From: Stramenopiles sp. TOSAG23-6
Lineage: Eukaryota
DNA: 64,000 bases
Direction: 5' to 3'
Assembly: GCA_900128565.1 (NCBI GenBank)
Contig: LT635910.1
Location: forward strand, 1-64,000
Part shown: positions 70-42,881 of the stretch, piece after piece
Numbering within the stretch: position 1 is the first letter of the stretch
Layout of the letters: each line of letters begins with the position of its first letter
The notes under the pieces: generated by a model
What the model saw: only the letters and a program-made list of their open reading frames with translations
What the model was told of the DNA's origin: nothing
Database searches by the model: none
Translations under genes and position numbers: made by a program

Positions 70-1162
70 AGAAAATCCTCAGACGATTTGACTAATAATG
101 GATTGGCTGCTACAATATTTCTTGTTGTATCAAGAGTAGTGTCAACTTTGATTTCATTATTACTAAGTTTCGCTGTATTTGTCTTGTTTGCTACATTTGA
201 GTTCTGAGTTGTTTGAGGTGTTTTCGATTCATCTTGAATTTTTTCTTCTGTTTGTTTCACTTCAAATACATTGGACGATTTTGTACCATCAGGTGTTGCA
301 TGTAATGTGAAAAAAAAAAAAATTTAACTTTTTTTTGTTAGGTACAAAATTTAGTATGAAAAAATTTTAAAAAAAAATTCAAAAAAAAATTCAAAACATA
401 CAAGGAAAAAGAAAATAATTCTACCTCCTGTGGGAACTCTAAATTCACCAACCAATGGATCATCAGAACTGCTTACAATCGTCCAAGGTAAAACATGCCT
501 CATTTTCCTTTTTTCACCGATAACTTTTTCAGCAAGTTTTGTAGCAGAAGTATGAGTGATAAAAAAGTATGTCAAATTTGATTTTGTTAGGTACAACATT
601 TTTATAAAAAACTATAAAAAAAAAAAAAAGAAAATTGAAAACAAAGTAAAAAACGTACAACTGATTTAACTCCAGCCGTCGCAACGACTTCAACAAGATC
701 GACCCCTACTCCACCAACAGCAAGGACTCCTTTTCCAACACCTTCAATACCATGTAATATAGATTTACCAACACTATTAGATCTTTCTCGCCCTGAAGAA
801 CTACTTGAGTATGTTTTTGTATTAAATTCATCTTGTCCTAAATCTAGACTTTCTGCTGAAAAGCGTGCAGCTGTCGACAGCACTGAACGTGCCTTAGATG
901 GCCGGAACTCAATAAGAACTGATAAAGTATGTTGTTGTGCAGCTATTCGCCAACGTATCGTATCTCCAGATATTACAGGATAAGCCTCATCGAAAGGTAT
1001 AGAATCACTTATAGTAATGCCATCACAATTTTGTATATCAACGTCAACTTCAAATCCTCGTAATAAATTGAAACCGTCAGATGCATTATTATAAAGTTCT
1101 TTGGGGTTCAAGTGACTTGAAACATTACCAGGTACTTTTTGATGCCTTTTTCGAAATGGCAT
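1..1162 (-). CDS. Multi-exon gene running off the left edge, with a GOLD-like domain; exons 1162-659, 548-402, 299-70
   Basis: ORFs 602-1162, 351-599 and 51-260 join in frame across T-rich introns with GTACGT/GTATGT donors. GDTIRWRI...GEFRVPTGGRIIFFF resembles GOLD-domain strands (inference). Confidence 0.65.
300..401 (-). other. Intron GT-AT, 102 nt, phase 0
   Basis: ctt|GTATGTTTTG...TACCTAAC...TTTTTCAC ATTACAT|gca aca cct. Removes an in-frame stop and joins FFFL to ATPDGTK. Confidence 0.75.
549..658 (-). other. Intron GT-CT, 110 nt (alternative GT-AT end at 552)
   Basis: gtt|GTACGTTTT...TACCTAAC...TTTATCAC TCATACT|tct gct. Both candidate ends are phase 0; spacing from the two motifs favours 549. 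Confidence 0.65.
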
Positions 1163-1724
1163 TTTTGTGATGGGAATGTTTCGTTAGGGTTGTAACGTAC
1201 TCTCCGTAGAAAAAGTGTTCTTGGGAAAGGACGACATTCAATCCATCGGAGATGTTTGGGCAAGAAAGATATTTTTTTGTAAAAATGTAACTGAAAAATA
1301 GATACCCGGTACTGCAAATGTAAATTTTCAAATTTAAATTTTTTCAATTTTCGAAATTGCAAAGAAATTCAAAAAATTGCTATATATAATATTATATGAC
1401 ATTGTTGTTGTTACTACTATAATACAACTATTGACAGTTGTGCACAATAACAAATAGAATCTGTATTTTATTACAAAAATAACAAAGACATGTGTAGTAT
1501 TACGACAATGTTGCTGACTAACCATAAACACCGCATAATATCAACAGATGTGTCAGAATAGAAATACCTGGTACCACTGCCATTAACTGTCCACAAACAG
1601 AAGAACAAAAAGATAAAGTATAGTCACTTCTACTATATACAATTATTAGAAGCCAAGCTTACAAGTGGTGAGCATGATACTCCTTTCAAGACCTGTGTTT
1701 TTTGTATATATTCTTTTTGTTGTT

Positions 1725-2772
1725 ATGGAAAAATTTGCGTCATCTACAGACCCGTTGTCTACTACAATGTCAACTACAATGCCCACTACAGATGGTGGTG
1801 ATATTTCTAAAAGGCCTCAAAGGAAACAAAAACGTTTTGATCAATTTGGTAAAAGAATCAAAGGAAAACAAACAGAATCACAAAAATATGCTGAAATGGT
1901 TAGTTTGAATAAAATACCTGAGAAGAAAATAAATGAAACAGTTGACGATAAAACTAAAGAGATTACTGAAAAAAAAAAAACTGGAAAAAATGACGGAGAC
2001 AATCTCAAGAAAAACGATCCATATTTTAACTACTTTCACACGTCCAGTACATCCGGCAAATCAATTTCAGTACCATTACAACACTCAAAAACTTGGCTTG
2101 GTCAGTTTAATTTGGGTTCAATTCCAAAAAAGTCAAAAAATCGTTTATATACGTTTATCACAGGAGCTCAACCAAAAACTCAAGAAAATAGTTATGTACG
2201 ATCTTGTAGCAATTTTCCATATTGTTCAGAAATTCCACCACCACCTCCGTTTTTACCGAGCCCTTGGGAAATACCTGCAAGTGATCCACTTCCAATATAT
2301 CCTAGTTTAGCTTCAGCTCCAATTGGAAAACAGGATGAAAGGTTACTAAATGACTACATCAAAACTCTTCCTTTACCGAGGCAAGAAAAAATTGAAAAAA
2401 AAAGACAAAAAGCAAAACAGATGGGTAATGATGCTCTTAAGAATTTTATATTGAGGCAAGGAGCTTATCCTAATCCGGATAATTTAGATATGAGACAACA
2501 TGTATGTTTTATATGAATTTAAAAAAAGGTTTCATACGAAATTTCATACCTAACGAATTTTTTTTTCATAGAAATTAAATTTTTTTTTCACAATACATAC
2601 TCTTGATCCAGAAACGGAACAACTCTGGCGACGTTCATATTTATCCGGAGTTGCAGTTGATAAAACGCACCAGAAAGTTTTGAAACTTCGACGAGAAGGA
2701 GGAAAAAATGGACTTTGGAAGACGACGTCGTTTTTTGAAGGTTTAAAAAAAAAAGTCCCTTCTTTTCGATAA
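1725..2772 (+). CDS. Hypothetical protein, 2 exons (1725-2501, 2599-2772), about 316 aa
   Basis: Lys/Pro-rich ORF from ATG 1725. It continues after the intron as TLDPETEQLWRRSYLSG to TAA at 2770-2772. No family recognised. Confidence 0.7.
2502..2598 (+). other. Intron GT-AT, 97 nt, phase 0
   Basis: caacat|GTATGTTTT...TACCTAAC...TTTTTCAC AATACAT|act ctt gat. Confidence 0.75.
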
Positions 2773-3077
2773 CACTTTATTTTTGTTAGGTACGAAATTT
2801 CGTACGAAAAAAAAACATTTAGATAAAACATTGAAAAAAAATAAAATTATACCATGAACTTGATGTTGATATTGAACAATAGGAACAATATACATACATT
2901 GAGAGAGAGAAAGAGAGTGATAGAAGATCATCCATCTTTATAAACAGAATATAACCATATATTTTTCAATTTTTAATCATTGTTTCATCAAAAATTGTTC
3001 ACTATTATTTTTATTCAACACAACTCAGGAAAAACTGAGAGAAACGATTTTTTGTGCCAAAAGCTTCTTGAACAACT

Positions 3078-3338: not shown

Positions 3339-3717
3339 TATAAACTTTAAAAGATTTCAAAAAAATATATTGATTTGTTATGACATTATTGATGTGAAAC
3401 AAAAAACGTGCCCTGAAAAAGAGGAACATGACATAGATAAAAAAAATAATAAAAAATTGAAAATTTTGAATTTCAAAACCGCGAAAAACGAAAACAAAAA
3501 AAACGGCAACGCAAACAAACAACCCTTTGCCGGTTTGGATTTGAAAGTTTCACACTGTTCCTACACTCTTATAAGTTTGAACTCTCTGCTTCTCGACCTG
3601 TAGCAGTAAAAAAGGTAACGATTTGTCTGTTGAAAACGCCAATTCGACATTCTGAGATTTATTGTGTAGTTAAGGCAGCTGTGGTTATTTAACTTGGTCT
3701 TATTACGATAGAATAGT

Positions 3718-5466
3718 ATGAAACAGCACACATATAAAAGATTACTGGGCAACGACGTAAAACAAGCGAGGAAAAACGCAACCAAGTTCCTTTTATGGTT
3801 CCTTGGTTTGACAATTGTTATTTTTCTTAGTCTTATTCTCTCCTATTATAACTCAGTTGTTAAATCCAAAGTTATGCACAGTATGTCTCCAAAAACATTG
3901 AAACGTGGCACGCAAGTTGTCGTTGGAAAATCGAGTGTTAATGGCGCAGAACTGATGCGCATGCAACAAGTCAGAGCCACCGCAAATCCGTGCCCTCGGC
4001 CCAGAATGAATACGCCCGCGGGATGGTGTACGCATACGGGAGCACATTACCTTTTAACAGATTGCGATGGAGATGGTATTGCCGACCATGTTTGCATGGA
4101 CCTAGGGGGAAATCTCGGTGTCATCCAGTCAAGCAATTCGTGCAAAGATTCGTGGCCACACGGAGAATGTATAGCGAAACCTGGCGAGGCAAGTAAGTGT
4201 AAAGCCACGGCTAGTGGTTGGGACGAGAAATGTGCGAAGCGAAATGTGCGTTTTTCATGTAATTTCGACATACCTAAAGAAAATGACAAATGTTTTTGGG
4301 ACGACTCATCAGACTGTGAACCTGTGTTTAGTATTATGAAGAAGAAAAATGGAAAGGAGAATTATGAATATATACAATGGAAAAAGTATTGTAGCGATTA
4401 CACAACACCAAATCCTTGTAATGATGCTGCATCGTATACGCCACCATACGGGTCATGGTATGATCCTTCTTCAAAGGCCCCATACTGTGCTCAATTTGGT
4501 TCGGAGGTTTGTACAGGGCATTGGTTTTGGCGTAGCTGTTACCAACCGTGCGCAAAGTGGCAGCCACAAAGGATCGGGAATGGAAGACCTGGTAATAATT
4601 GTGTATGGAAACCAACACAACACTGTGCTCCCTCGTTACGAGTATATAGCAATCCTTTATCTGAAGATTATGAATATGCTAAGAAACAGTGCGGATCTTA
4701 CACGACGTATGCAGAGTGTAGATCAACTGGAACAACTGATAATGATCCCCGACGGAAAACGGTAGACGGAAAAATTACAAACCGCTGTCGCTGGGATGAC
4801 TACAAACCCTACAAACGTATTGGTGAGACAAATCCAAAAATTAGTGATCAAGAGGGAATAAATTTAGGGAAAGTAGCCTATAAAGTTTTGGGTGATTGTG
4901 TGGACGCATGTGATAATGATAAACAATGTCAACACTTTACTGCGTGTTCAGAGGGTACTGAACAAAACTGTTATTTATATACAGGCACAGATCAATCGCA
5001 AGTAACAGAGAAAGAAGGCAAGAATTGTCAGATGTACTTTAAGGCTGAGTCGTATTTAAAAATTTATGTCAGTTATGAAAACAATGTTTTATATCAATCA
5101 TAGTTAATTCGTTTCAACAAAATTTCATATTGTATACATTATATCCCCTACGAAGACACAGGCGTGGAAAAACGAAATTTTCTTCCCTTAACACAATACC
5201 CTGTTTTGAAAGGTATAGGTGGTGCTAACGTAGATGACTGTCTGAAAGCGTGTGATAGTGATCTTCAATGTACAACCGTCAGTATAAATCGCCGACATGA
5301 TAATGCTATGTCGTGTCAACTATTCACGTTTGAAAAAACAGAAGATTTAACCAGAGCTGTCCCGACCCTTGGTTATGCAAAGCAGATATTTTATAAACCT
5401 GAGCTCAACTTTACATGGCACAAGGCTGAAGCACTTGGAGCTAAAGTTTCTTCAACAACAAGGTAA
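3718..5466 (+). CDS. Cys-rich surface or secreted protein with an N-terminal membrane anchor and C-terminal PAN/Apple-like modules
   Basis: TM segment near aa 24-44, many Cys/Trp, and two C-x3-C-x5-C modules (DCVDACDNDKQC, DCLKACDSDLQC). The two ORFs are in the same frame, separated by one TAG inside a probable intron. Confidence 0.75.
5052..5135 (+). other. Probable intron GT-AT, 84 nt, phase 2
   Basis: gag tc|GTATTT...TTTCAT ATTGTAT|a cat tat. Removes TAG 5101-5103. Lacks TACCTAAC, and a 36-nt GT-AG alternative (5068-5103) exists. Confidence 0.5.
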
Positions 5467-17325: not shown

Positions 17326-17346
17326 CTTTGCTAATAAATTTTAATC

Positions 17347-23335: not shown

Positions 23336-23765
23336 TTCCATTTGAGATTGTCTTCTTTAAACGTATAAAAAGAAGTATCTTCCTATAAGAAATGTATTCA
23401 TTTCACAAGATAAAAAAATGTATTTCATTCCCAAGATAAAAAAATGTAAAATATAGACATCTATCGATATCAGTAATAAACTGTTCAAAATATGATACAG
23501 TAAAAAGATAGATGAAAATAAAAAAAATTAGAAAAATAATGATAAAATTTTGTTTTTTTNGAANGANTAAANTNACTTTGAATATCTTCCTCTTTAATGA
23601 TACAAGTTTTTGTCTTAGTTTTTCTTCTAAAGCTTTTCACAATTTGTGAGTATCTTTTGGTGAGTATTTTTCAAAAATGTTTTCAACTTGTTTTTATTTT
23701 TTACTCTACCTATTTTAAAAGAAAATACACTTACGATAATAAAATGGTAATTGTAGAATTTTAAA

Positions 23766-26700: not shown

Positions 26701-29700
26701 GCCAAGATAATCATCTTTTATAATTTGAGAACTCACGCGACTTGTTGCTGCTAACCACATTCCTGTAGTCGAAAGAACATCAATTAAAAAGAGATTTCCT
26801 GTTTTAGTTGAGGTGCGCGATAGATTCATTAATTTTATTAAACCTTGTGCAATACTTATCGCGCGTCTTTTATCGTTCATATCCCAAGAACATTTAGCTT
26901 CCAGCATTAACCATTTCATTCGTAAGTTTTTAGAAATACATTTTGATGTATCTTCAGATGTAGTCACTACTGATCGAGCACGTCGAAGGTAATTCATTGC
27001 CAAATGAGGAAATCCAGCCTTACGAGCCAAAAAGGCTGCATTACTTAGGTGTCGCTGTAGTAAATCAAAACCTGCATCACCAAACGTTCTAAGGAGAACT
27101 TCTCTTACACCAATTAAAGGCTGGAGAAGTTCAAAAACATCCACTCCAATTTGTTTATTTTTCATTTCCCAGTTTTGAACTAGTTTACTTAAATTTGTAC
27201 TTAATTTCGTACCTAAAGAATTTTGAATTTGTTGGGTACCACATTCCTCCATTAATTTCTTTACAGCATTAATTTCATAGACACATTGTAACTGTGACAT
27301 TGCAGAATATACACATTTTTTATCTTCAACTGAAGCACGACCATTTATCATATTTGATCCATGAACAGCATTGAAACTTTTTATAAGAAAGTTTTCAGCT
27401 TTTTTTATTGATATCGCATACATATCATCATTACCTGTCGCTACAGACCGCAATACATGAAAGAGACACTGATGCAAGCCCCAATCTGATACATTAGAAT
27501 TTCGAAAGTCTTTTACTATTGTTTGTTCCGATTTATATTTTTGAGTATTTTTTGTATTTTCAGTTGTATTTTTAGGGTTAGGGTTTATCATTTCATCATT
27601 TTTATAATCATTTGAAATCCATAAATTAGAAGGATCATTTCGCCAATGAGAACACAAATACGCTGCTTCAAAATGAATTTCAATTAATTCTTTCGATGTA
27701 CGTGTGTCTACTTGGCGTGCATATGAATCGAGGTATAAACCAATTGTATGATATAAACTTTGACATTTCATTGTTTTAATTAGAGATAAGTATCCGTTGG
27801 ATCCGTTGGAACAATTATCTATACTATTATTTGTTGCATGAGTACTTCTGGAATACATATCTCTACCACGTTGTTGTAGCATTGTATCAAATATTGATAA
27901 ACTGTGAGATTGATTCGTTTTAATTCCAGATGTTACATCGCCACATACTCCAGCTATACCATCAGGATCATTTAAGCCTCTATACGATTCTTCTAATAAA
28001 CGTTTATAAATAGGCAAATTCTGATTATCTTCATATACACATTCTAATCTAGAAAAGTGAATATCAATATTTGAATCATCATCAAAATGAAAAATTGAAG
28101 AATTACCAAAACTTTTGTTTTGTAATAATTGTTTCGATTCTGGTAAGTCATGCCATAATTCAACATAAAATAATGCAGTCAAATACAATTTACAACGTAA
28201 TGATGCTTTTGCAATGAGTAAAGGATCTAAGGACAATGAATACAAGTATTGTGAAAAAATATTTTTTTTAGTAAAAAAAAATGTTAGGTGCAATATTTTG
28301 TATGAAAAAAAGTGTAGGTAAAAAATCCAATTTTGAAAAACGTACAATTTTCGTGAAATTCTACGACGTTTTTGTTTTTGTTTTCTTCTATCATTTTTAG
28401 AATTTTGAATTGATAATTGATGAGCAGCGACAGAGTGTTGATGAAGTACTTGTATAGTAGATAGAATAAGTCGAGCAGCTTGAGTTGGCACAGAAATATC
28501 TTCAAGCAAGTTTGTGACCCATAAAGATAAATCATTAATTATCTCTGGATTATTCAACATGTTTAAGACACATAATGGAAATGCGACAGATGCAAAATCT
28601 GCTTTGAGTCGCGACAAACCTGCCGCAGCTTTTAAAAATGGATCCATAACAAAATGACTTGATTTCGCTAAATAAGTTACTCTACATATCCATGTTTCAT
28701 AAGACTCTCCACTTTGAATAGTCCACGAATGCTGCAACATTCGATAATAACTTTTATATTCGTGTTTGTTTTCAGTATTTTTTAAATTTCCTGTGTCACA
28801 AGTAAACTGATTCTTATCATGTTTAAAATGAATAAAAGGGAGTAAATGTTGTTTTGTTAAATCATCTAAAAAATTCATGGCGATTTTCCCACTGTCCGTA
28901 GAAAGCATACCACCGATAGCATACGCTGCTGTGCTAATTACATTTGGATCTGGATCGACTAAACAGGCCTCAGCACTACGAAGTAATTCAGCTTTTGCTT
29001 GAATTAATAAATATTCTTCTCCTAAAGTCTTAATAGTATTACTATTCTTTTCATTTTTGTTTGATGAAAAATTATTGATAGTAGTACAACCTACCAAAGA
29101 GATAATACTTGGATTTACTGTACCAATACATCCTAAACAGCGTGCTGCTAATGATTGCAAAATATATGACTGATCAGGGGAAGTAAATGAAAGTAAAGCG
29201 CGTACAAGGGTATCCATATCAGAAGATATATTATTCTGTGATTTTTGCGATTTTTGAGCTTTCTGTGATAATAAATAAACTAAAGCAGCTGAATGATTTT
29301 CTAAAGTAGATAATAAAGTTTGTAAAGGAAAAATCGCATTTGACCCGTGAAACGATTTTGAATGATCCAAAAACGTTCGCAAAGTTCTTTGAAGAGTTTC
29401 AACTTGACATAATTTTGTATTTGATGAATTATTTAGTGTAGACTGAGAGACCTTCTCATGAATAACAATAGAATTAACGCTTTTACTAGACGATGATGAT
29501 TCTTTAGTGTAGTCTTCATTAGCACTTTTACTAGACGATGATGATTCATTACTATGTTCTTCATTCATTTTTACTATGTACCGTAAATCATCTACTAAAG
29601 ACTTAATTTTATCCATATCAGTAGAATGTAATACCACATCCACATTTGTTGTTTTCTTTTTATTACTTGTATCAATAGTATTTAATTCGAAACAAATACT

Positions 29701-32700
29701 AAATGCGGCAATGAGCTCAGGAAATCGCATTAAAAAGAAATCAATACGTTTTAGTAATAATAGATGTTTTCTACTCAAGGATGAATTGTTTTTGTTTTTA
29801 CTGTAGCTATCTTTCAAATCATTGATTCCAGAACGGTCTAATAAGAGTTGTACTATAGTACAGCACACAAGACAATGACGTTGTTTGTACGTACGTAGAA
29901 TATGTAGTATAATATGTACAATCATACGAATTGTCGCAGGCTCTACGGAGATACTTCCAAGTAAATCGATACAAAGTTCAAATGATTGTAGTAATCGATT
30001 AAGAATATAAACATTATCACATTCATGAATGTTTTTGTTCATCAGTAAAAGAACTTTCTCAGTATTTGCACGTTTTAATAAATCTTCTGGGGTTTGTTTA
30101 GATTTATGTCTACTAGCAAAGTGAACAATTGCTTTCCGGACACTTTTGATATTTACTAACGCAAGCGTACCTGATTTTTCTAATGCAGCGACAGAAAATA
30201 ATCTATTGATTAACCCCAATGTTTGTTTTGGAGTACACAAGCCATTCATCATTTTAGATACTGAACCGTATATATTGACTAACCATTTCTCTGCTTGTGT
30301 CGCCAATTTATGATCTGTTGGAAGTTTGGTGAAATAAAGAGGTAGAAATGAACCGACTATATCACCTAAATTTGCATCAATAAATTGGCAAATTGCAGAT
30401 TTCAGTATATTTGAATCACTTTGAATAGAAATATTTTTCATATTAATTGATCCTTGTAAATGCATTGCACTTACTAAAAGTTTTATACGCTCCGCGTTTG
30501 AATTTCGTACAATTAAAACTGATAATACTACAGGTAATGCTCCACAATGCTCTGATAAAAAATTGTTCCAACTACTCGTTCCCATTAATGATATTGGGAA
30601 CGATTCTATAGATGCATACTCTTCAATCCAACGAAATAAAATATATTCGAGATATTCTTGTAGATATTCCTGAGTATTTTGAAATCCCAAAGAAGTAGCA
30701 ACACGTGAGAGGATACATGAAGTACTACACTCAATTTCTGGAATACAATAAAATGTACACAACTTATATAACGAATCTCGTCGGTGTTCAAGTACTTTAC
30801 TTCTTTTAGCGACTTCACCAAGTGTTAATAACCCGGTAATACATTTATTGTTTTGATTCATATCGTCATTAGATGACTCATCTTTCTTAGTTTTGATTCT
30901 TGGCATTATACATTCAATGGATTGATCTTTTACTAACACAGAAAACGACTCAACTTCAGTTAATAAAGGTATTACGCTAGATGCAACATGACGCACGGAA
31001 TATTCATTATCTTGCAATAATTTACACGAAATGACTAAAAGCAATTCACCAAACTCACCAGGGGCAATATAAAACCAAGGTATAAGTGTAATTAACCACA
31101 ATCGACGAACTATCGAGTTACGCCAACTTTTTTTATCTTTACCCACAAATTTTAATAAAGCTTCCACATTAGCTAAAATATTATAATTATTTTGATCACT
31201 GGATGAAGTAACAAAAGAAATAGTAGTCGTATTTGAGGAATATAACATCATACCAATATGATATAGTAAACAAAGCAAACGAGACTGGATTTCTGGATGG
31301 CCATGATATTCAGACATAACTAAACGAAATATTTCTAAAATGTCATTTAATCCAAATCTACGTAGATTTTTTTTAGTACAATGATAATGAATGATTAAAT
31401 CACATGCACAACCAATACAAGTCAATGCTATCACTGGGTTTGCAATGAGTTTGGGATTTTTTAATATTTGGCGTATTTGTTGTATTACATTTTTCACTTT
31501 TAAAATTTTTAAATCTTGAATATTTTTTGATTTACTTTTACTTGATTGAGTTTCTTCATCTGACGAATAAATACATGTCATTATTGTGTTACATTGCAGC
31601 ATCAAACAAGTACACATACAAAGTTCAATAATATTATTTGACCCATTGATGACTTGAAGCATGTTTGTTCCCGAATGAGTGACTTGACTACAATACACAA
31701 CCGAACAAGACGCTAGAAGGTCTAATGAAAATAATTCATCTACCTTTAACATTCTTTTTGTTCTATTATTATATTCATTTTCAACTCTATTTTTTCCATT
31801 ATAATTTTCTGTATCAATATCATCCTCATCACTATCGAAGCCACCGCTGCAACTTCTTTTTCCAGATAAATTCATTTCAAAAGACTGATATGATGTAGAT
31901 TGTGTTTGTTGCATTGTTTTCATACACAAATCTATATGCTGTGTTAACCATTTTAATATACAGTTTACATAATCTTTATTCTTGTACACTAGACTACTGC
32001 TACATTTTTCAGTATCCAAAGAATTTGAATTATGATCAACATCGTTATTGACAAACATTCTAGACGATAAATATATTATGGTAGAAGGATCCATAGTGAA
32101 TGATTCATCATACTTTGTTACATTTTGATTATTTGATGTATCACAAAATTTTCCCAAACAAATGGTCATAAAACGTTTTACTCTAGCAATCAATTTGAGA
32201 GTATTTTTCAATGCCGTTTCACATTGAGAACGTTTTAACGAATTGACCAATGCATTTAAAACCTTTTTCATTGCACTTGTTGAAGAAACAACAAAAGCTG
32301 TAATTCGACAAAATGTTTTCATACTAAACTTCTTACCTAAATCCTTTTTTACATTATTCTTATCAATGTCCATTGATTCTTTCTTATCTGTTGAAGAGTT
32401 TTCTACATATTCCTCATAATATTGTTGAAGTTCTATAAATGATGCATTTACAGTATCAATAACCATTGATACAAGCACACGTTGTTGTTCTATTGTAACT
32501 AAATTCATACTTACAAACGTTGGAACATTTGGACAATTACCTAAAGGATCAGCATTTGGCAAATTCGAAATTGAATCTGTACCTAATTTCGTACCTAACG
32601 AATTTCTAATTTGTTGAGAGTCATCTACTGTAGTGTCATATTCAAACATATGATATAATGGATTAGTACTAAATAACACGTTCTCAGCATTTGAAATCCA

Positions 32701-35289
32701 CTTTTTCATGCATACATCAACAGTTTTAATTTCGGGGAGATTTTCATAGTAATTTGAATTGTTCAATTCTGTTAATGATTTTTGAACTTTTGTAGATGGA
32801 ATGATGAAATAACCTTTCAAACCACCTACTCGAAAGGCATCTAATGTGCATTTATTCCATACATCACTATATAGTGATTTTGATATGAGTTTTTCTATAT
32901 TTGTATTTTCAGTATTTCTTTTTTTTTGAGTATTTTGGTTACAACTGGGACATACTAATGAAATTATATCAGCTATAAAGAATTGTAATCTCTCATGCAC
33001 TTCAACATCAGATTGAATACACTCTTTAATACTAAGATGTGTATCAAAAGTAGTTATCATTTGGTTTTTTATCACTGTATTAAACCACTGTAAAATCTCA
33101 TATAAAATACATTCTCTTTGTGAATTCGGATTAGAATTTTTACGATTGTGAGTTGATCCAATTGTTATACTAGTATTTCCCATACCATATAATTCAGCAA
33201 CATTTAGAAAAGCAGAGGTTATCCCAGTAAATAAAAAACTTTTACTATATCGTGTTCTTTGCGTAATTCCAGAATTACCAGAATTTAATAGTAATATATT
33301 CCAAATATTATTCTGAGTTCTAGATATAAAATGATTTGAAAATATACTATTATTTAAATGTAAAAGTTCACATATGATTTTCACACATAATGAAATGATG
33401 CCTGTTGCATTAGAAGTCTTTGATATCTGAAGTTTTCCTATACATGAACAATATATTTGTTGCCAAGAATTAATGATTGAACACATCACTTTTTTTTTTG
33501 TACGTTTTTTTCCACAAAAGGATGAATTACTTGTGTTATTTATATCAAATGTAATATTTTGTTTTAGTTTTACTTGACATAAGGCATAGATACAACGAAG
33601 TATCCAAAATGTTTCCATTGCAGTTGACTTTTCAGTATCTATCGCAACAAAACGAGAACAGAGAATGGTGATAACATTTTCATATCTTTTTGTAAAAATA
33701 TTTGAAAACATTTCAGGAAAACGAGAAATAAAGTATGTAAGTATTCTTAATGTTGTTATACAATCAATATTACTCGTGGTTGCATCATGTACAGTATCAA
33801 ATTGTAATGTATGTATCAGTTTTTCCAGAGGAGATATTTTTAGTATTGTCTTCATTTTTTTTTTGTTTTCTTGACTCTCTTCAACAGAATATGATCTTTT
33901 TCTTTTATTTGAAATTGAATCTGTAACAAATCCAGACGTTTCCGTACCAAACGAAGTTCGAATTTGCTGAAAACCACCTTCAGTGTTTATGTTCTCTACA
34001 TTTTCAATATTACTTTCTATACGTATTTCTCTTTGGTTTATATTTTCCAAAAACAAATGATGACAATGATATATTAATTCACTAGCTAACATTATTATAA
34101 TACTTTCATTGCGTGGTAAATTATAAATTCGAGTACCTATTGATAATGACTTTGATCGGAGAGAACGTTTCATTGTAATACCTAAAATATCTCCATTACA
34201 TTTGACATTCTGGATTTGCTTACCCAATACAATATGTTCATATAAACGTATTAATAATGAACTTCTTATATTTTTGTTATTTTTGTTGATATGAATTATT
34301 GGATCGTTCCAATGCAATCCACCACAAGTAGCAGGAGCCTTTGAAATACAAACTTGTATTCTTGAATTACGTAAATGAAGTAAAAATAACATAGTAATAC
34401 ATTGTTTACTCCCACTGTGCTTTGGTAAATTAGGCCAAACCCGGAGACAAAAATTGAGAATACCATAGGAATATCTTCGATATGATTGAATAGATTCAAT
34501 AGGGAATCGCTGAAGTACGATACAAATACAATTTATAACTTCTGTGACAGTTGCATTATCATTATGATTACGATTATTAAGCCACGAAGTAACTGTAGCT
34601 AAGACAATTGGTAAATATTTTACAACTACTTTAGAATTTAGAAAATTGCTCAGTAGTAAACAGACAATACGAAAATGTTTCACATCGGAAGAACAAAAGT
34701 GCTTATCCCGGATAAAGCTAAGAAAAGAATGCATCAAATTTCGAAATACACGAGGAGATAATTTACCACAATATTGACATTGTAGTAAAAGTACACGTAG
34801 TATATTGCATGTACTATTATGTAGCTTCATATTAGTCTCTTCCGCATGCAAAATGCGTTCACAATTTTCAAAAATTTCACCAACAACTGAAAGTAAAGCA
34901 GAACCAGGGAGAAAATCTTCAGCTTTTCGAATAACTTCACCAAGTAAATCTTGATCATACTGGCCGCCACGTGAGCTCACAGGTTTCTTTCGGCCTTTTG
35001 ACTCAGCAACTAAATAGTCTAAAATATCTCCGACGAGATCGGCCCACGAAACTCGAATAGACTCTCCTGTCCTTGAATTTTCATTATCAATCAAACGATT
35101 AGCCTCTTTTTGTTTGACTGAATTACGGTTTAGTAAATTCACATACCGTCCATTATTTGCACGAATATAAGAAAATATAAGTTTTTTTCCCTCTTTGCGA
35201 TCAGTTGCTTTCGACGACACAAGCTTAATAATAGCAGAATTAAGAGCGTTCAGTAGTCGATTATTCTCGCGGCGCAAAGCATCCCCCAT
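23766..35289 (-). CDS. ATM: ATM/Tel1 PIKK kinase; exons 35289-28346, 28243-26324, 26148-24839, 24631-24284, 24175-23766; about 3643 aa
   Basis: TAN-like N-terminus ([10 protein letters not shown]), FAT region, kinase motifs [34 protein letters not shown], and [12 protein letters not shown]...MYHGWASWV. Confidence 0.92.
24176..24283 (-). other. Intron GT-AT, 108 nt, phase 1
   Basis: gat cct t|GTACGTTTT...TACCTAAC...TTCAC AATCTAT|tg tat aaa tgg restores HDPLYKW. The intron holds an in-frame stop and no AG. Confidence 0.88.
24632..24838 (-). other. Intron GT-AG, 207 nt, phase 1
   Basis: cct t|GTACGTAT...TTCAC ATTACAG|gt atg tgg gives FPLPCMWYAKR. Confidence 0.9.
26149..26323 (-). other. Intron GT-AT, 175 nt, phase 2
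   Basis: gca aa|GTACGTTTT...TTTTTCAC AATGCAT|a tat gtt cgt gives AEIAKYVRELK. Confidence 0.8.
28244..28345 (-). other. Probable stop-free in-frame intron GT-TT, 102 nt
   Basis: aaa tt|GTACGTTTT...CACCTAAC...TTTTTCAC AATACTT|g tat. It reads through as a Phe-rich 34-aa insert. Confidence 0.7.
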
Positions 35290-35765
35290 TGTACCGAGTG
35301 AACAAAAGCACTCGCAAAAATAAACTTGTTATTGTATCAATAATACAACATGAGTAAATTGAATATGGTTGGTTGGCTTGGGGTGGCAAGAGTGTTAATA
35401 ATATCAGAAAACTTGGCCGAACTCTCGCTTCTCCTCGCTTCGTTCATCAAAATGACCGAGCTGGGTTGAAAAAAAATCGAAATTATTTCGATTTCGTGTT
35501 TCAAAAATTATTTCTTTTTTTTGAAATCAAAAAAATCATCGTCATCGACTCATCATCGTGTGCCTCTATTTTTTACTCTTCATATTATATAATCTTCCTG
35601 CACATTGAAATTTCACCATTGCAGAATTACACCTCTTAGATATTTGCCATCTGCATCGGATTATATAATTAAGTCCAAATATTACTTTGGATACTGGCCG
35701 GCTCAATCATATTTGGAGAAGAGTTTCTGTGAGAGGTACGAATCTAGTGTTCACTAAGTTCTCTA

Positions 35766-35984
35766 ATGTCTGGACTAGTCAAAAATAGTTCAAACCTAGC
35801 CGCTACACCATCAAGTGTTATGAATGAAATTTCACACTTTACTCGATGGGCAGAATCGGGGAAAGAATCAAAAGAGATTTACCAGCGAACAAAACAAGAC
35901 TTATCTGTAGAAATCCTCGATGACCTCCGGAAAGAAATTGCTGAACTTGCAAAGGACCACTGGATGTTTGTTGAAGGTTCATAG
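35766..35984 (+). CDS. Small protein, 72 aa, SAMBA/APC16-like C-terminus
   Basis: ATG-initiated ORF divergent from ATM, ending LDDLRKEIAELAKDHWMFVEG. Similarity is from recall only. Confidence 0.6.
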   Translation: MSGLVKNSSNLAATPSSVMNEISHFTRWAESGKESKEIYQRTKQDLSVEILDDLRKEIAELAKDHWMFVEGS

Positions 35985-36509
35985 TAGTAGAAATATGATA
36001 GAAACCTTTAGAATATATGTAGTTATATAATTGATTTATGAGGATTCTGCGGAATTATGAAGATTAAATTTTTATTCTTTATATTTTTCTTTTTAGCTAA
36101 AAGCAGCTATATCATTCGTAACATTTGAAAGAGTTTTAGAATATTTTTTTAAATAACAAATGCAATGCCACACAATTATTTAAATTATACAAACAAGACT
36201 ATCAGACAATGATATTTACATGATATAGATTGAATTTTCATAAACGTTTTGCTTCATGTCTCTTCTTTCCTGTGTAATATTGTGTAAGTACACGAAATAA
36301 ATATTTTTTCATTTTAACGGACGTTCTTCAACCGTTACTTATTATACAGCTAGTAGATAAGGTACCCGTTTGAAAGCACTTTTATACTGAACAATAAAAT
36401 ACGGATAATGTTGGTGCGTAATAGTGATTCTCGCTAAGCCTAGTTGCATCTATGCTATATATCCTCCGCATTTAATTGATAAAACATCTGCTAGAGTATT
36501 AGACATAAA

Positions 36510-39458
36510 ATGGCGGCAATTTCATTCATTCATAGAAAATTCACGAAGATGAAAAAGGAAGAGTCGAAAATTGACCATACTCCCGGGTGGTCTCGGTTAA
36601 AGCACGCACACCACGCAAAGCGACATATCAAGAATTTAGTTATCACAAGACCTATTGCAGCAAGAGTTATTCAAAAGACATTTAAAATATATCTTAAAAA
36701 GAAGCAAGGACTTTTGGCACCGGATACAACTAAAACATCAACGTTGACTACAAGTGACGATAAACTTAATATTGCTAGTAGTTCCACTAAAGAAGTAGAT
36801 GATTGTCTAAACACTCCAGACAAAAAAACAGAAAGTAAATCTGTTGCCGGTATACCAACAGAATATCTTGAGAGAATATTCAATAAACTAGATCATGATA
36901 AAGATGGTTTCTTATCAAAGAAGGAAGTAGGCAAGTTTGCAAAAGAGTTCCACGAAAAAATAACTTCATTCTTTGGTGGAAATTCTCTCGCAGCTGGTTT
37001 CGAGGAAATGGATAGAACTAAAAGAGGAAAGGTTTCTTTTGATGATGTCATTTGGTGGCATCGCTTACACCACCCAGAAACTGAAGAAGAAGTTGAATCT
37101 CAAATACATTTTCTCTTTAATGAGATTGACACAAAGGGCACTAAAACTTTAAATAAAGCTGAGGTTGGCAAGTTGGCTGCAAAGATGGGAGACCGACTGA
37201 AAGGATTTTTCGGATTTAGCCACAAGAAGTTAGATTTAGCATTTGTTCAAATGTCACAAATTGGAAGTTCGGTTGTAACATTTGAAGAATTTTTAGCATG
37301 GCACAAATTCAAACATCCTAAGTTGTATAAAAAGTTAGCTTCGCATAATAAAGATATACAAGAAAGCCATGATAAAGATCAAACTAATACACAGACACAT
37401 ACATTAGTTACAGGCGATCTTCCACCACAGGATGTTGTGATGAAAACGCGGACATCAATTGTAGGTAAAACATCATTTCATCCCCCCAAGACTATGAATG
37501 AAATAATATTAAAAACAAAAATTCTCTTTGATGAGGTGGATAAAAAAAAATGTGGAAGACTAACTATAAGTCAAATGAATGATCTGGCTAAAAAACTTGG
37601 ATATCATCTAGAAAGATATTTTGGTTTTTCTAAGAAGAAGCTTCTAGCAGCATTCGCCGATATGTCACTAGAAGGATCTAGTACAGTTACTTTTGAGGAA
37701 TTTATACTTTGGCACAAAATGTATCACCCAGAAGTATATGCTGAGGTTCCAGATTTACATGGTACAAAACGCATTACTGGTATCAATAGTTTGATGTCGA
37801 AATGCTCCGTAGCAGGTATACCAACGGAGCATTTTCGATTGATTTTTACTGAACTTGACACAGACAATGATGGTTTACTTTCCGAAAAGGAAGTCGGCAA
37901 GTTTGCAAAAGAGTTCCACGAAAAAATAACTTCATTCTTTGGTGGAAATTCTCTTAAAGATGGCTTCAGAGAAATGGATAGAAAACAAATGGGTCGTGTT
38001 TCGTTTAATGATTTAATTTCATGGCATCGAAAGCATCACCCAGAAACAGAAGATGAAATTACTTCACAAGTACAGTTTCTTTTTAACCACGTTGACCAAG
38101 AGAAATCTGGATTTCTGAATAAAAAAGAAGTAGGAAAACTTGCTTCTAAAATGGGTTATCGATTGAAAGGATTCTTTGGAATAAACCATCAAAAATTAGA
38201 CATTGCATTTTCAGAAATGGTAAAACCTGGAGAATCACGTGTCACATTTGATCAGTTTATAAAATGGCATAAAATACACCACCCTGAAGTTTATCGAATG
38301 GTTAAAAAACATATACCAGTCAATTTAAAGGCTCGTCAATGTGAAGAAGATAGACCAATAAAAAAATCATGTGAAGAAGATAGACCAATAAAAACATCGT
38401 GTGAAGAAGATAGACCAATAAAAACATCCACTACAGCCAATGTCAAAGTAGACGTAGACACATGGACTGCAACAACTTGTGCACATCTTGAAGATGCACT
38501 ATCAGCCAATACATCAAGGAAACACATTCATCATGATGTGAATACGCTGCTCAACGATCTCCCAGCTGATTTGAGTGCAAGCCTTCAAGTTGCCATGTCT
38601 ATGAAAAATAAAGCAATTAGTAGGTTGAACGTAGAAATGGAAAATAAAGAGATTCTTTCAGGAGCACTGAAGTATTTGCGCAAAAATAATCTTATTCCCC
38701 CAAAGAGTTCTCATATTACTGCCGACACTTCAAAAGGAGAATTTCCAGAGTTACCAGGAGTACACTCAATTTTTACCATAGCCCTGAGGAAAATACATGA
38801 CTGTTTGTCATCAGTATCTGTACTTTCTGAGCTTTCTGATTGTGATACCGAAAATACTGGTTTACTTGATACGTCTACTGTTTTCCAAAAGCTTGACAAG
38901 CATTTGAGATTTCCTCCTCTTGAAAAAGCAGCCGTATTCCTATTGATAGATCCTAATGGTGAGGGCAAAGTTCCATATAAAGATTTACCAAATATAATAC
39001 CTCAAATCCCAAAGCCTGTGAAATGTAGTTCCTCCAATGAATATTTGCATGTAAATAAGAAAGTAGAAAATATAACTTCAAGTTCAGATAATATAGCAGG
39101 TAAAACCCCAATGAAATTATCACCAAAGAACATAGGAAGTGTTTCAGTGACACATGAAAATTTACCAGTGGAAGCCCCACCTAGGGAAATAGAAAATTTG
39201 CCATTAACATTTGAAAGGTTACCATTTAAAAAATCATTGAAATCATCACCTACAAAAATAGGACATGAAAAGTTACGATTGAAAAAATCATTGAAATCAT
39301 CACCTACAAAAATAGAGGATTTGCCATTAACATTTGAAAAGTTACCGTTGAAAAAATCATTGAAATCATCACCTACAAAAATAGAAGATTTATCAGTGGA
39401 ACTTGAAAAGTTAAAGAAAAATTTGCAAGTAAAATTGAAAGCGTTTCTTAGCGAATAA
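36510..39458 (+). CDS. Multi-EF-hand protein with IQ-like motif and internal duplications
   Basis: AARVIQKTFK; repeated EF pairs (DHDKDGFLSKKE, DTDNDGLLSEKE); KFAKEFHEKITSFFGGNSL occurs twice. Confidence 0.88.
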   Translation: MAAISFIHRKFTKMKKEESKIDHTPGWSRLKHAHHAKRHIKNLVITRPIAARVIQKTFKIYLKKKQGLLAPDTTKTSTLTTSDDKLNIASSSTKEVDDCLNTPDKKTESKSVAGIPTEYLERIFNKLDHDKDGFLSKKEVGKFAKEFHEKITSFFGGNSLAAGFEEMDRTKRGKVSFDDVIWWHRLHHPETEEEVESQIHFLFNEIDTKGTKTLNKAEVGKLAAKMGDRLKGFFGFSHKKLDLAFVQMSQIGSSVVTFEEFLAWHKFKHPKLYKKLASHNKDIQESHDKDQTNTQTHTLVTGDLPPQDVVMKTRTSIVGKTSFHPPKTMNEIILKTKILFDEVDKKKCGRLTISQMNDLAKKLGYHLERYFGFSKKKLLAAFADMSLEGSSTVTFEEFILWHKMYHPEVYAEVPDLHGTKRITGINSLMSKCSVAGIPTEHFRLIFTELDTDNDGLLSEKEVGKFAKEFHEKITSFFGGNSLKDGFREMDRKQMGRVSFNDLISWHRKHHPETEDEITSQVQFLFNHVDQEKSGFLNKKEVGKLASKMGYRLKGFFGINHQKLDIAFSEMVKPGESRVTFDQFIKWHKIHHPEVYRMVKKHIPVNLKARQCEEDRPIKKSCEEDRPIKTSCEEDRPIKTSTTANVKVDVDTWTATTCAHLEDALSANTSRKHIHHDVNTLLNDLPADLSASLQVAMSMKNKAISRLNVEMENKEILSGALKYLRKNNLIPPKSSHITADTSKGEFPELPGVHSIFTIALRKIHDCLSSVSVLSELSDCDTENTGLLDTSTVFQKLDKHLRFPPLEKAAVFLLIDPNGEGKVPYKDLPNIIPQIPKPVKCSSSNEYLHVNKKVENITSSSDNIAGKTPMKLSPKNIGSVSVTHENLPVEAPPREIENLPLTFERLPFKKSLKSSPTKIGHEKLRLKKSLKSSPTKIEDLPLTFEKLPLKKSLKSSPTKIEDLSVELEKLKKNLQVKLKAFLSE
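38340..38426 (+). repeat. Coding tandem repeat, 30 bp x3
   Basis: tgtgaagaagatagaccaataaaaa.atc. repeated (CEEDRPIK). Confidence 0.9.
39187..39395 (+). repeat. Coding repeat, three copies of KKSLKSSPTKI
   Basis: aaaaaatcattgaaatcatcacctacaaaaatag x3. Confidence 0.9.
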
Positions 39459-39720
39459 AACATTTGAAAAAAAATAAAAGTAACAATAACACAATATATA
39501 TGAGGAGAAAAAACAGTTCTCAAAAGTATTTTTATGTTTTTATTTATGTACAAAAAAATGTAGGAAACTACGTACCTAAATGACGTTAGTCAATGGTTCT
39601 GTATATTGTTTCATATTGTTTCATTCTAATAAAAATACACGATCAAACACTATAAACAATGTTTTTTACGTCATCTATCAGTCAATGTAAAGGCAACTCG
39701 AAATATAAATAATGAAAATA

Positions 39721-40917
39721 TTATATTCCATACTTAATGTCCATTAATGTTTGCAATATTACAATGAAGAGAATCATCAGACCGCCACTGCCTCCAAGAT
39801 GCAAAGCTTTAAAACCAAATCCAGGATAAACTCCAAGAATTCCTGATTTAGATACTAAATCACCAAAGACTTTGAAATGTGAAGCAAAATGTTGAACAAA
39901 TTTACCACCACATGATTTAGATTCATCCGATTCTGAAGGTTCTTCGCGTATCATTTGACGTTGAACAACAGAACGAACAACATCAGGTGGAGTATTAAAA
40001 ACTGTTGCAAAGGAACCCGCAATGAAAGCAGAAATAAATTTAGCCAAGAAATAGAAGATTACGTGAGTTGCACCCATTAATCCAAACCATTGATTAAAAG
40101 GTTTACGGAAAAATCCAATCATCATGAAAAAGAGACCGGTCCAGATACCATTTCTCAACTGCATACCAAACCATCCAGAGTAAACACCAGCAAAACCATG
40201 TGTTTTGTACATGTGCTTTAACGCAGCAAAAACACTGTTTTTAAACTTATTTTCAGAGTCAATTTGAAGTGCAATTTTTGCAACTTCAAGTGGAGTTACA
40301 ATAAATATTTCAGGAAAAGTAGCCAACATACCGATTGGTCCTTTGATGTAGAAAGGAGTTGTAGCCATAGTTGTTCCGTTAATGTGTTTACAAAACAAAC
40401 CGAAAAAGAAAAATTTGGAGGCTCTCATCAAACTGGATTTAATAATCTCAGCAAGGGCTCCTTGCTTAACAAGACCTTTAAGTCCGTGTGTTTTAATGAA
40501 ATCTTTGATAGACATTGGGTTTTCCTGTCCAGCAGAAGCCATTTTCAGCGCTCTTATGACGTCAACAGGGTACATGAATAAAGCAGTCAACGCAGCTGCA
40601 ATACAAAGCATTAAGATGCGCCAAAGCTCAGAATCTCGTTTCTGATTTTTTGAAGGTTCATTTGGACTTGGTGCATTATGAAGTGATGTTCCTACGAGTG
40701 CGTATGGAAGAATCAATATGCTCAGCAGTAAGACACCAAGACACCCACCCACAAAATACTTTAACAAGGTTTTTCTGGATTCGTCAGCTTTTTCTTCTTC
40801 GGATTTTCCGACTTGAGAATTTCCACTGGTCTTTTTGATTGCAGTAAAGTTACTGGAGCTTGATATCTCATCCTTTTGAGATTCAATGTCTTGTTTGTTT
40901 AAGAGTTCTTGTTTCAT
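39721..40917 (-). CDS. Mitochondrial carrier (SLC25) with N-terminal extension
   Basis: Three PxD/ExxR/K signatures: PVDVIR, PLEVAK, PPDVVR. Confidence 0.9.
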   Translation of the reverse strand: MKQELLNKQDIESQKDEISSSSNFTAIKKTSGNSQVGKSEEEKADESRKTLLKYFVGGCLGVLLLSILILPYALVGTSLHNAPSPNEPSKNQKRDSELWRILMLCIAAALTALFMYPVDVIRALKMASAGQENPMSIKDFIKTHGLKGLVKQGALAEIIKSSLMRASKFFFFGLFCKHINGTTMATTPFYIKGPIGMLATFPEIFIVTPLEVAKIALQIDSENKFKNSVFAALKHMYKTHGFAGVYSGWFGMQLRNGIWTGLFFMMIGFFRKPFNQWFGLMGATHVIFYFLAKFISAFIAGSFATVFNTPPDVVRSVVQRQMIREEPSESDESKSCGGKFVQHFASHFKVFGDLVSKSGILGVYPGFGFKALHLGGSGGLMILFIVILQTLMDIKYGI

Positions 40918-41244
40918 TTTGGAAGAAATTAGACCGTTGTAGTGTGCTACAGATGTGTTCGAAGTGCGTTCGAAGTTGTCCCGACCTCTTCACTTGAAAC
41001 TACTCGATGCACACTGACTTTATTCTGGAGAAAAACGCATTTTCGTACTTAAAAATCCGTACCAAAAAAGTGGAGAATTCAAAATTTCAAACACGTGTTA
41101 CATTGATGATGTCTGTGAGTCTGTCACGTCGACTGGTCACTCGCACTGGCCAAGTGATCCAGATCCACTGCTGGCCAACGAAAATTGGAAGGTTGATGAA
41201 AAAAAGTTATCTCAAGATTATACAATAAGTGCAACAATCCCAAT

Positions 41245-42881
41245 ATGTTTCCTGTACATACATGTAGACGCTTCTTTTCTTCACCAGCTGTCCGTGAAAG
41301 GAGCGTTGATTTTGGCGATATTGTACGTGCAAGTTCATACTTTCGCGAACAAGCTTTCATTGGTGGTACATGGGTTGATAGTACTTCGGGTAACAGCTTT
41401 GATGTAGTCGACCCTGCTTCTGATGAATATATCGGAAGTGTACCGGATATGAATGCTAATGATACTGATATTGCCATTCGTGCTGCTGAACATGCTCTAC
41501 CCTCCTGGTCTAGAAAACTTGCGAAAGAACGTTCTGCAATTCTTGAAAAGTGGCATGATCTTATGCTACAAAACAAGGATGAGCTGGCTCAGATTATGAC
41601 ACTGGAATCTGGTAAACCCCTTGCTGAATCCATTGGTGAAGTTGTTTATGGTGCATCTTTTATAAAATGGTTTGCGGAGGAAGCAAAAAGAGCTTATGGT
41701 GATATCATACCTGAACCTTTATCTGGTCGAAAACTATTGACAGTGAAAGAACCAGTGGGAGTATGTGCTTTTGTGACACCATGGAACTTTCCTATTGCAA
41801 TGATCACACGAAAAGCTGCCCCAGCACTTGCTGCTGGATGTGCCTTTGTTGTAAAACCCTCAGAGGAGACCCCTTTTAGTGCTTTAGCTTGTGCAGCAAT
41901 TGCAGAGGAAGCAGGTTTGCCCCCTGGATTATTTAATATAGTAACATCATCGAGAAAAAATACACCTGAAGTAGGTGAAGTTCTTACAAATAGTAAAATA
42001 GTGAAAAAATTTTCATTTACTGGTTCAACAAAAACAGGAAAAATATTGGCTAAGCAATGTGCTAATACTGTTAAACGCGTATCCTTGGAGTTAGGTGGAA
42101 ATGCACCATTTATAGTATTTGATGATGCTGATATAGATGCAGCTATTCAAGGCGTTATGTACGTTTTCATCATGAATTTGAATCTTTTTTTTTTTTCGTA
42201 CTACATTTCGTACCTAACAATTTTTTTTTTACTAAAACGAAAAATATTTTTTCACCGCACATGGATTCTAAATTTAGAAATACTGGACAAACTTGTGTTT
42301 GTGCCAATCGTATTTATGTACATGATACTATATATGATGAATTTGCTGATTTGTTAACTCAAAAAGTAAAGTCTATGCCTGTGGGTCATGGTGCTGTTAA
42401 GGGTGTATTATCAGGGCCTTTGATCAATAAGAGTGCTTTAGAAAAAGTTGAGGATCATGTAAGTAATGCTGTAAAGTTAGGTGCAAAAGTCTTAACTGGA
42501 GGTGATAAACATATTGCTGGTGATAACTTTTATATCCCTACTGTTCTCTCTGAAGTAAATCAAAATATGAAAATAGCAAATGAAGAAACATTTGGTCCTG
42601 TAGCTCCATTATTTCGCTTTTCTAATGAAGAAGAAGTTATAACTGCAGCTAATAATGTTGATTCTGGACTTGCAGCATATTTATATTCAAGAGATATTGG
42701 ACGAGTTTTTCGAGTTTCTCAAGCTTTAGAATATGGAATGGTTGGTGCAAATGCTGGTGTTATATCATCTGAAGTTGCTCCATTTGGAGGAGTGAAAGAA
42801 AGTGGTTTAGGTAGAGAAGGTGGAAACATTGGTATGGATGAATTTATGGAAGTGAAATATATTTGTTTAGGTGGGTTATAA
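41245..42881 (+). CDS. ALDH5A1: Succinate-semialdehyde dehydrogenase; exons 41245-42158, 42263-42881; 510 aa
   Basis: TPWNFPIAMITRK, FTGST, LELGGNAP, SKFRNTGQTCVCANR, EETFGP, PFGGVKESG. Confidence 0.95.
42159..42262 (+). other. Intron GT-AT, 104 nt, phase 2
   Basis: gtt at|GTACGTTTT...TACCTAAC...TTTTTCAC CGCACAT|g gat tct restores QGVMDSKFRNTGQ. There is no AG inside the intron. Confidence 0.9.

Follow-up and report, generated by a model that had tools for sequence, protein, structure and literature searches.

What defines the 3' end of an intron that does not end in AG? The question is raised by a 64,000-nucleotide (nt) stretch of DNA from Stramenopiles sp. TOSAG23-6 (contig LT635910.1, positions 1 to 64,000; hereafter the window), for which a first-pass annotation had proposed eleven introns, most of them ending in AT, and had suggested that the acceptor is placed by its distance, exactly 7 nt, from a TTCAC-like motif. 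We analyzed these introns (i1 to i11), the donors of which were set at the only GTAY site available, and extended the position-specific counts to thirteen introns with the two carried by a metagenome contig (L042, described below). On balance, we think it likely that they are real, non-AG spliceosomal introns forming an introner-like family, with an acceptor that lies at the end of the terminal block of the repeat independently of AG; most probably, they are of the U2 type.

The twelve-nucleotide intron ends quoted in the annotation are all present in the window (11/11), each of them once and at the end of the intron to which it had been assigned. The accompanying claim, that a cut 7 nt past the box restores the reading frame in all eleven, holds wherever the frame is informative. 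Indeed, this cut opens the frame in the eight introns that break it, namely i1 (300–401, minus strand, 102 nt, with an in-frame stop if unspliced), i2 (549–658, minus strand, 110 nt), i3 (2502–2598, plus strand, 97 nt), i5 (14014–14110, minus strand, 97 nt), i7 (24176–24283, minus strand), i8 (24632–24838, minus strand, 207 nt), i9 (26149–26323, minus strand, 175 nt) and i11 (42159–42262, plus strand); by our own arithmetic, the chance of such an 8/8 outcome is (1/3)^8, or ~1.5e-4. The frame also works for i6 (20492–20595, plus strand, 104 nt), with the donor at 20492. By contrast, the test is empty for i4 (5034–5135, plus strand) and i10 (28244–28345, minus strand), each of which measures 102 nt and lies between exons in the same frame, i10 being devoid of any stop codon.

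Homologues fix the junction to the residue in three of the eleven cases (i7, i8 and i11). The gene that holds i11 (GTACGT...TTCAC-CGCACAT, GT..AT) encodes a succinate-semialdehyde dehydrogenase, with Pfam positions 1–263 in the first exon and 258–461 in the second. In tblastn alignments to P0002, P0004, P0033 and P0015, one and the same M closes the first block and opens the second, and the alignment to P0050 has no break; all five independent homologues read ...QGV-M-DSKFRNTGQTC..., so that no residue is lost. Intron i7 (GTACGT...TTCAC-AATCTAT, GT..AT) interrupts the kinase domain of an ATM/Tel1 gene. The spliced window product agrees there with HDPLYRWSRTQPEAL in the relative P0242, and the spliced region aligns to HDPLYRWSRTQPEALRKQ in P0242 (81% identical) and to HDPLYKWALSPLKAL in the plant ATMs P0243 and P0244; a 35-residue query from the start of the exon following i7 gave no match in the PDB, and the junction was settled by the comparison with P0242 and the plant proteins. 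For i8, which is located in the same kinase domain, the numbering of PDB entry 6sky is contiguous, with residue 2732 at the end of the upstream exon, 2733 as the split codon, 2734 as M and 2735 as W, as is that of entry 6k9k (2842, 2843, 2844). Judged from these alignments, two AT-ending junctions (i7 and i11) and one AG-ending junction (i8) are exact, and the cut falls at the same position whether the last base is T, as in i7, or G, as in i8.

Public protein models go wrong at the same places. P0001, which derives from the same or a near-identical gene, reads QGV-I-NTGQTC at i11: the next in-frame AG, 15 nt downstream of the intron, was used, with the result that DSKFR is lost. Likewise, P0241 reads HDP-CT-PEALRLQ at i7 and retains translated pieces of i8. 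As read from these sequences, modelling with GT-AG introns only damages the proteins at i7, i8 and i11, where conserved residues are deleted or pieces of intron translated.

Could the other introns nonetheless end in AG? We enumerated every frame-keeping GY..AG pair near each intron. For i1, i2 and i5, no in-frame AG option with the conserved donor was found; i1 contains an AG 28 nt before its end that is bypassed and whose use would break the frame. AG options for i7 (+30) and i11 (+15) were rejected by the homologues. A shift of the borders by −1, giving TG...CA, is impossible for i9 and disfavoured for i8, where the split codon encodes Cys as in P0242, and a shift by −2, giving AT...AC, is possible only in i3 and i11. 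The proposal that motif distance sets the 3' splice site is thereby upheld in part: the introns are real and most of them cannot end in AG (i7 and i11 by homology, i1, i2 and i5 for want of an option), and the position itself is backed by i8, which ends in AG yet is cut where its AT-ending relatives are, and by the bypassed AG of i1; a ruler anchored on TTCAC is no more than possible.

The word "relatives" is meant literally. Nine of the eleven introns are, according to their alignment, copies of one repeat family of ~100 nt, which had been overlooked in the annotation. These nine introns, spread over six genes, align over their whole length and are made of the same parts: a GTAYGTTTT start, an imperfect palindrome (GGTAY-N-AAATTT-N-GTACC) that passes into CCTAAC, a segment rich in A and T, and AAATATTTTTT-CAC followed by 7 nt. 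A profile built from seven introns re-finds those seven at E-values of 1e-10 to 7e-17. Family introns comprise i1 (GTATGT...TTCAC-ATTACAT, GT..AT, E 2e-10), i2 (GTACGT...ATCAC-TCATACT, GT..CT, E 6e-11), i3 (GTATGT...TTCAC-AATACAT), i5 (GTACTT...TTCTC-AATATAT, E 2e-12), i7 (E 9e-14), i10 (TTCAC-AATACTT, GT..TT, E 1e-12), which lies open in frame within an open reading frame (ORF) of 3009 codons, and i11 (E 7e-17). The same profile also matches the 3' block of the two long members, i8 (TTCAC-ATTACAG, repeats D8 and D12) and i9 (GTACGT...TTCAC-AATGCAT, with the core in reverse orientation; repeats I7 and I18), and the repeat families D4, D6, D8, D12 and I3–I9 agree with the profile result. Intron i5 joins a BAR-domain exon to an SH3-domain exon, the two domains being compatible with one gene. 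The family profile, used with nhmmer, detected neither i4 (TTCAT-ATTGTAT), a putative intron with uncertain borders in a PAN-domain gene, nor i6 (TCCAC-TATATAG), a GT..AG intron of a CLC channel gene.

Partial copies are found outside genes, at 45842–45915 (minus strand, a 3' block TTGAC-AATACTT outside the gene models, E 5e-07), at 2773–2817 (minus strand, an intergenic core with a perfect palindrome and CCTAAC, E 1e-06, repeat I6) and at 46104–46146. The two intergenic relics within 45900–46170 (minus strand) are each preceded by a common motif, GATACCGCCTCA, and a longer, composite form of the element may also exist. The core is present, too, within the ATM ORF, in two 46-nt copies (87% alike) that are antisense to it and in frame, at 32571–32616 (plus strand, profile match, repeat D6, raised depth) and 27189–27234, where pieces of the element appear to have been turned into ATM coding sequence. 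The 5' part of a further intron (GTATGTTTT...) occupies positions 1–69 on the minus strand and runs off the start of the window.

The family is very abundant in environmental DNA. Window DNA is near-complete in two small runs of one sample and partial in seawater and marine metagenomes; over 23600–43599, we compared the window with the contigs of three RNA-labelled runs and of one DNA run (X3, a seawater metagenome). In X3, the summed contig depth of the bins that contain elements reaches 5109, 1605, 183, 126 and 108, as compared with ~3.5–9 for most exon bins, and two RNA-labelled runs have matching peaks at 1157 and 230–270. Many contigs part from the window exactly at the element borders, leaving loose ends at 42157, 28246, 26266 and 26300. 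Since X3 record 15 (1474 nt), which comes from an independent sample, spans i11, this intron is no assembly artefact and was not removed from the DNA there.

Scanning metagenome contigs with a pattern combining donor and core yielded 64 loci, one of which, L042, on a marine contig, is a true copy (ACAT|GTATG...TTCAC-AATACAT|); the other 63 are chance matches or unrelated repeats. L042 contains a second intron, L042b (GTACGT...GTACCTAAT...TGTAC-TTCACAG|), in which the frame picks the AG located 7 nt after TGTAC, whereas a cut 7 nt past its TTCAC leads to an immediate stop. L042b conforms to the rule if this is taken as AC followed by 7 nt, the box here being TGTAC. The core pattern had two matches in prokaryote genomes, both in gut bacteria and attributable to chance, and none in viral contigs.

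The borders of the introns may bear marks of insertion. A T precedes the donor, as the last exon base, in 10/11 introns (P 1e-4), this exon base equals the last intron base in 8/11 (P 0.002), and the preceding base also matches in 6/11 (P 0.05). This looks like a 1–2 nt target duplication or an insertion preference, and such a border repeat leaves a one-base uncertainty in the cut of most introns. The terminal inverted similarity of the elements is only 3–5 nt, no transposase was found in the 30 ORF pieces scanned within the window, and no presence/absence polymorphism of the copies was seen. Two unrelated inverted repeats of identical geometry, at 19257–19501 and 46188–46433 (46-nt arms that are 98% and 91% complementary, separated by 153 and 154 nt), may form a second family resembling miniature inverted-repeat transposable elements (MITEs), the one at 46188–46433 adjoining the intergenic relics of the intron family.

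What, then, do the introns have in common at their ends? The donor is GTAY in 13/13 and GTAYGT in 9/13, in keeping with the extended U1/U6-type GT consensus. By contrast, the AG of U2-type acceptors is present in only 3/13, the others ending in AT, CT or TT; among the eight family introns examined, with the GT border taken as fixed, six are GT..AT, the exceptions being i2 (GT..CT) and i10 (GT..TT). At −12 to −8, the counts among the thirteen are T12 T11 C12 A12 C12, followed at −7 to −1 by A9, A7, T10, A9, Y12, A11 and T10/G3. The last two bases vary (AT, CT, TT, AG) and the position is constant. A TTCAC-like box occurs at −12 to −8 far beyond chance (exact TTCAC is expected at ~0.001 per position), but the copies are related. 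The eleven cases can accordingly not be taken as independent support, as the first-pass annotation had done, nine of them being copies of one family. Of the canonical AG introns that it used as an internal control, i8 is cut at the same place and is itself a family copy, and i6 fits with one mismatch in its box. Outside the family, i4 and i6 are the only cases, with one box mismatch each (P ~0.02 per site), and the i4 junction is not independently fixed. Each intron has two to eight boxes with at most one mismatch, of which the last alone is used; a cut 7 nt past an internal TTCTC of i6, although it would end in AG, would truncate the channel. A TTCAC-like box is therefore not sufficient to specify an acceptor.

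These data can be assembled into the following account. A short (~100 nt), high-copy, non-autonomous, introner-like mobile element would spread through genes and intergenic DNA. Each full copy would bring along a yeast-like donor (GTAYGT, usually GTAYGTTTT), a palindromic core with CCTAAC at its end, and a 3' terminal block in which a T-run and CAC are followed by five variable bases and a final A and T. A copy inside a gene would be removed as an intron; this removal, which the protein homologues back indirectly, would presumably be the work of the spliceosome on the RNA. The acceptor would coincide with the last base of the block, 7 nt after CAC, and would have no need of AG, that base being usually T and occasionally G. 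Its placement would follow from where it lies in the terminal block and not from the two bases at the cut, with either a branch A within TTCAC (at −9) or a factor that binds the T-run and CAC as the possible anchor. A more specific version, which we put forward tentatively, holds that in a free-living marine protist a major-type spliceosome no longer needs AG, that most introns are GT-AT and were made by the invading ~100-nt element, and that TTCAC, probably the branch site, fixes the acceptor at +7.

A number of observations weigh against this account. To begin with, the relatedness of the copies means that a constant 7-nt spacing is predicted by descent alone. The stretch from CCTAAC to CAC underwent net length changes in 5/11 copies over ~27 nt; by our own estimate, 1.3–1.9 indels are expected in the last 7–10 nt of the eleven copies and none is seen, a deficit that is not significant (P ~0.15–0.27). 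The indel variants listed within i10 and i11 (28261 and 42239) are both upstream of CAC, which agrees with a protected spacing but is weak evidence. As judged from these comparisons, the spacing is in the first place an inheritance from the common ancestor, and selection may in addition maintain it as a ruler.

Some introns, besides, have an alternative. In i3, an in-frame option of ordinary appearance, GTATGT..TCATAG, is found 27 nt upstream, preceded by CCTAAC and a T9 run; in i4, a 36-nt GT..AG option and an 84-nt option also keep the frame; i9 has an in-frame AG option 21 nt downstream; and the splicing of i10 is not required by the frame. Among the joints listed for the RNA-run contigs (23600–43599), none corresponds to i7–i11; where such contigs reach an intron, the element is retained in them, and the joints in question are mosaics made of different copies. 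No near-identical protein fragment was found across the i11 junction, the best match to exon 2 among proteins of 112–359 residues being 65% identical. The branch site has three candidates: the A of TTCAC at −9, a CCTAAC-like box, and TACTAAA in i10 and i11. Intron i5 has T at −9, where the putative branch A is expected, and in 6/11 copies CCTAAC lies 37 nt from the end, a second and looser regularity that the account leaves unexplained. Finally, the intron evidence comes from the 64-kb window and one 3.2-kb metagenome contig, L042.

Two other readings, which overlap with this account and with each other, differ in what they make of the acceptor. The first is a strict ruler, by which the acceptor of every intron is counted 7 nt from a TTCAC branch box, with its A at −9, and which has replaced AG recognition genome-wide. 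It draws on the presence of CAC at −10 to −8 in 12/13 introns, including i4 and i6, which lie outside the family, and the AG-ending i8 and L042b, on the choice made in L042b of the AG 7 nt after TGTAC in preference to the cut 7 nt past the later TTCAC, and on a position that stays the same as the end bases change and an AG is skipped in i1. We nevertheless regard it as doubtful. Apart from the common descent of the copies, the borders of i4 and the mismatch in i6, a cut at +4 in i2 (CAT end) keeps the frame as well as the cut at +7 (CT end), i10 with its TT end may be unspliced, and i5 lacks the branch A. In addition, TTCAC pairs poorly with the usual branch-binding sequence of U2, with which CCTAAC pairs well, and a branch 8 nt from the acceptor corresponds to the lower limit known from Giardia-type introns.

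The second reading, which we regard as no less doubtful than the first, is that the acceptor is defined by sequence: a terminal T-R-Y-A-T/G would be read, with AT in place of AG, after a CCTAAC or TACTAAA branch site and a T-rich tract, TTCAC being merely the end of the tract and a co-inherited neighbour. The last five positions are conserved, with T in 10/13, A in 9/13, Y in 12/13, A in 11/13 and T or G in 13/13. CCTAAC-like boxes, closer than TTCAC to the usual U2-type branch consensus, lie at an ordinary distance of 35–44 nt from the end in 11/13 introns; and both exceptions to the terminal sequence have an explanation, i2 through its in-frame CAT end at +4 and i10 because it need not be spliced. 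CAT and TAT triplets between the CAC box and the end are, however, left unused, for instance CACAT in i1, and a terminal A-T is a weak signal in DNA of 67% A+T, so that a distance or context rule would still be needed. Furthermore, core boxes are seen in either orientation and also away from genes, so that CCTAAC may belong to the mobile element without serving as a branch box.

It is improbable, in our view, that these are transformed minor-spliceosome (U12-like) introns that were multiplied as in Physarum, with an acceptor chosen by its distance from the branch site and non-AG ends tolerated. The segment TTTTTTCAC is similar to TTCCTTRAC, the differences being mainly transitions, and in our own comparison GTAYGTTTT matches GTATCCTTT at 7/9 positions. 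Yet the donor departs from [AG]TATCCTT at +5 and +6, the very positions that tell the intron types apart, there is no TCCTTRAC box, and the window has no small nuclear RNA (snRNA; no Rfam matches) with which U12 or U6atac could be compared.

Least probable of all are non-spliceosomal explanations (removal by end-pairing, as in euglenids and diplonemids, DNA excision, insertions in dead genes or assembly artefacts), for which a short inverted similarity of the ends (GTA...TAC) and of donor versus core (CRTAC), together with the direct repeat across the borders, might be invoked, but the donor is strongly conserved and yeast-like, the RNA folds of all seven introns analyzed are no more stable than those of shuffled sequences (z −1.5 to +0.3), the conserved host genes are intact after removal of the introns, and i11 is present in an independent DNA sample. 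The same fold energies led us to reject a hairpin or end-pairing idea; the only pairing available is that of the donor with the core's CRTAC arm.

How do these introns relate to known systems? Trichomonas introns have a fused branch-acceptor motif at fixed spacing. In the sections of the published descriptions compared here, Giardia introns resemble ours in two respects, a donor of yeast-like type ([G|C]TATGT) and an acceptor that follows a conserved ...AC box at a fixed and very short distance, the motif being CT[A|G]ACACACAG. The fixed distance is found here as well (7 nt after CAC in 12/13), but the Giardia and Trichomonas motifs end in AG where the present introns mostly end in AT, the box is TTCAC and not CTAAC or CTRAC, the spacing after AC is 7 nt as against 6 nt, and the introns here are copies of a repeat. 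That U12-type acceptors are chosen by their distance from the branch site is known from classical experiments. In the sections consulted, U12-type introns, including the expanded set of Physarum, tolerate non-AG ends and comprise a documented GT-AT subtype; their consensus donor ([AG]TATCCTT) and branch site (TTCCTTRAC) are not those of the introns studied here, which have GTAYGTTTT, and TTCAC after T-runs, and in which the branch-like A is at −9 and not at −10 to −12 or further.

A parallel to the way in which the introns would have arisen is provided by introners, known from Micromonas, Aureococcus, fungi, dinoflagellates and others. As far as the descriptions compared go, an introner is a short non-autonomous repeat that gives rise to many similar introns in genes unrelated to one another, brings one or more splice sites with it, is flanked by short border repeats and has copies outside genes; the described families differ from ours in their GY-AG borders. 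Since introner surveys start from annotated introns, non-AG families would be missed. The introner elements of Amoebophrya, another marine protist, resemble our family in being repeated introns that depart from GT-AG, and have inverted repeats as well as direct repeats of 3–5 nt across the borders. In the descriptions compared, however, neither of their ends follows a consensus, and terminal inverted repeats of 8–20 nt form hairpins, whereas here the donor is canonical, the A-T acceptor dominates and no significant hairpin is predicted. A widespread departure from GT-AG, probably seeded by MITE-like insertions, is also described for Fritillaria and other tunicates, and for the intermediate or non-conventional kinds of intron present in euglenids and hemistasiid diplonemids; in the accounts compared, their 5' end is also non-canonical or their ends pair extensively, whereas here only the 3' dinucleotide departs. 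Indeed, the conserved donor and the fold scores given above (7/7 introns) set our introns apart from the euglenid type.

In the literature searched, including PMC5778133, the parts consulted, supplements aside, contained no report of non-AG introns in uncultured marine stramenopiles. On comparison with these systems, the combination of an introner family with a non-AG, position-fixed acceptor appears to be a novel variation on known kinds.

The closest labelled protein has a EukProt name starting with GSMAST32, in line with an uncultured marine stramenopile as the probable source. The window (33% G+C) is dense with mostly single-exon eukaryotic genes, including those for a malate dehydrogenase, a JmjC protein, the CLC channel, the ATM/Tel1 kinase, a mitochondrial carrier, the aldehyde dehydrogenase, an RNase PH subunit, a SNARE and a prenyltransferase. 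A 120-N assembly gap (18847–18966) lies inside a carbon-nitrogen hydrolase gene, and single Ns are scattered at 23324–23574 and 46261–46279. In the CLC channel gene (20596–20873 and 20831–23335, plus strand), the frame changes near 20830–20870 without an intron signal, and the conserved segment expected between ...AELRDFL and GVFFVVEEASS is absent; a deletion made in assembly, an error in sequencing or damage to the gene itself could account for this. A gene for a large EF-hand protein contains three tandem 30-nt units, 93–97% alike (38339–38428), and a 300-nt internal duplication (36840/37806). Short telomere-like runs of TTAGGG/CCCTAA occur within genes, at 13849–13884 and 27553–27588, and also on the reverse strand of L042, at ~890–960.

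The acceptor AG is among the most constant signals in eukaryotic gene expression. If our account is true, a lineage that has a textbook donor but mostly AT ends would constitute a natural experiment on the choice of site in the second catalytic step; it could show how far a branch-to-acceptor ruler can stand in for base recognition, and would also be a case of a mobile element that imposes its own non-canonical splice signal on the genes of its host. An acceptor fixed irrespective of the last two bases would also mean that standard GT-AG gene finders mis-build proteins. The errors of P0001 and P0241, two models for this organism or one closely related to it, fall precisely at the introns described here, and the GT-AG-only proteomes of such single-cell and metagenome assemblies probably hold systematic deletions and retained pieces of intron.

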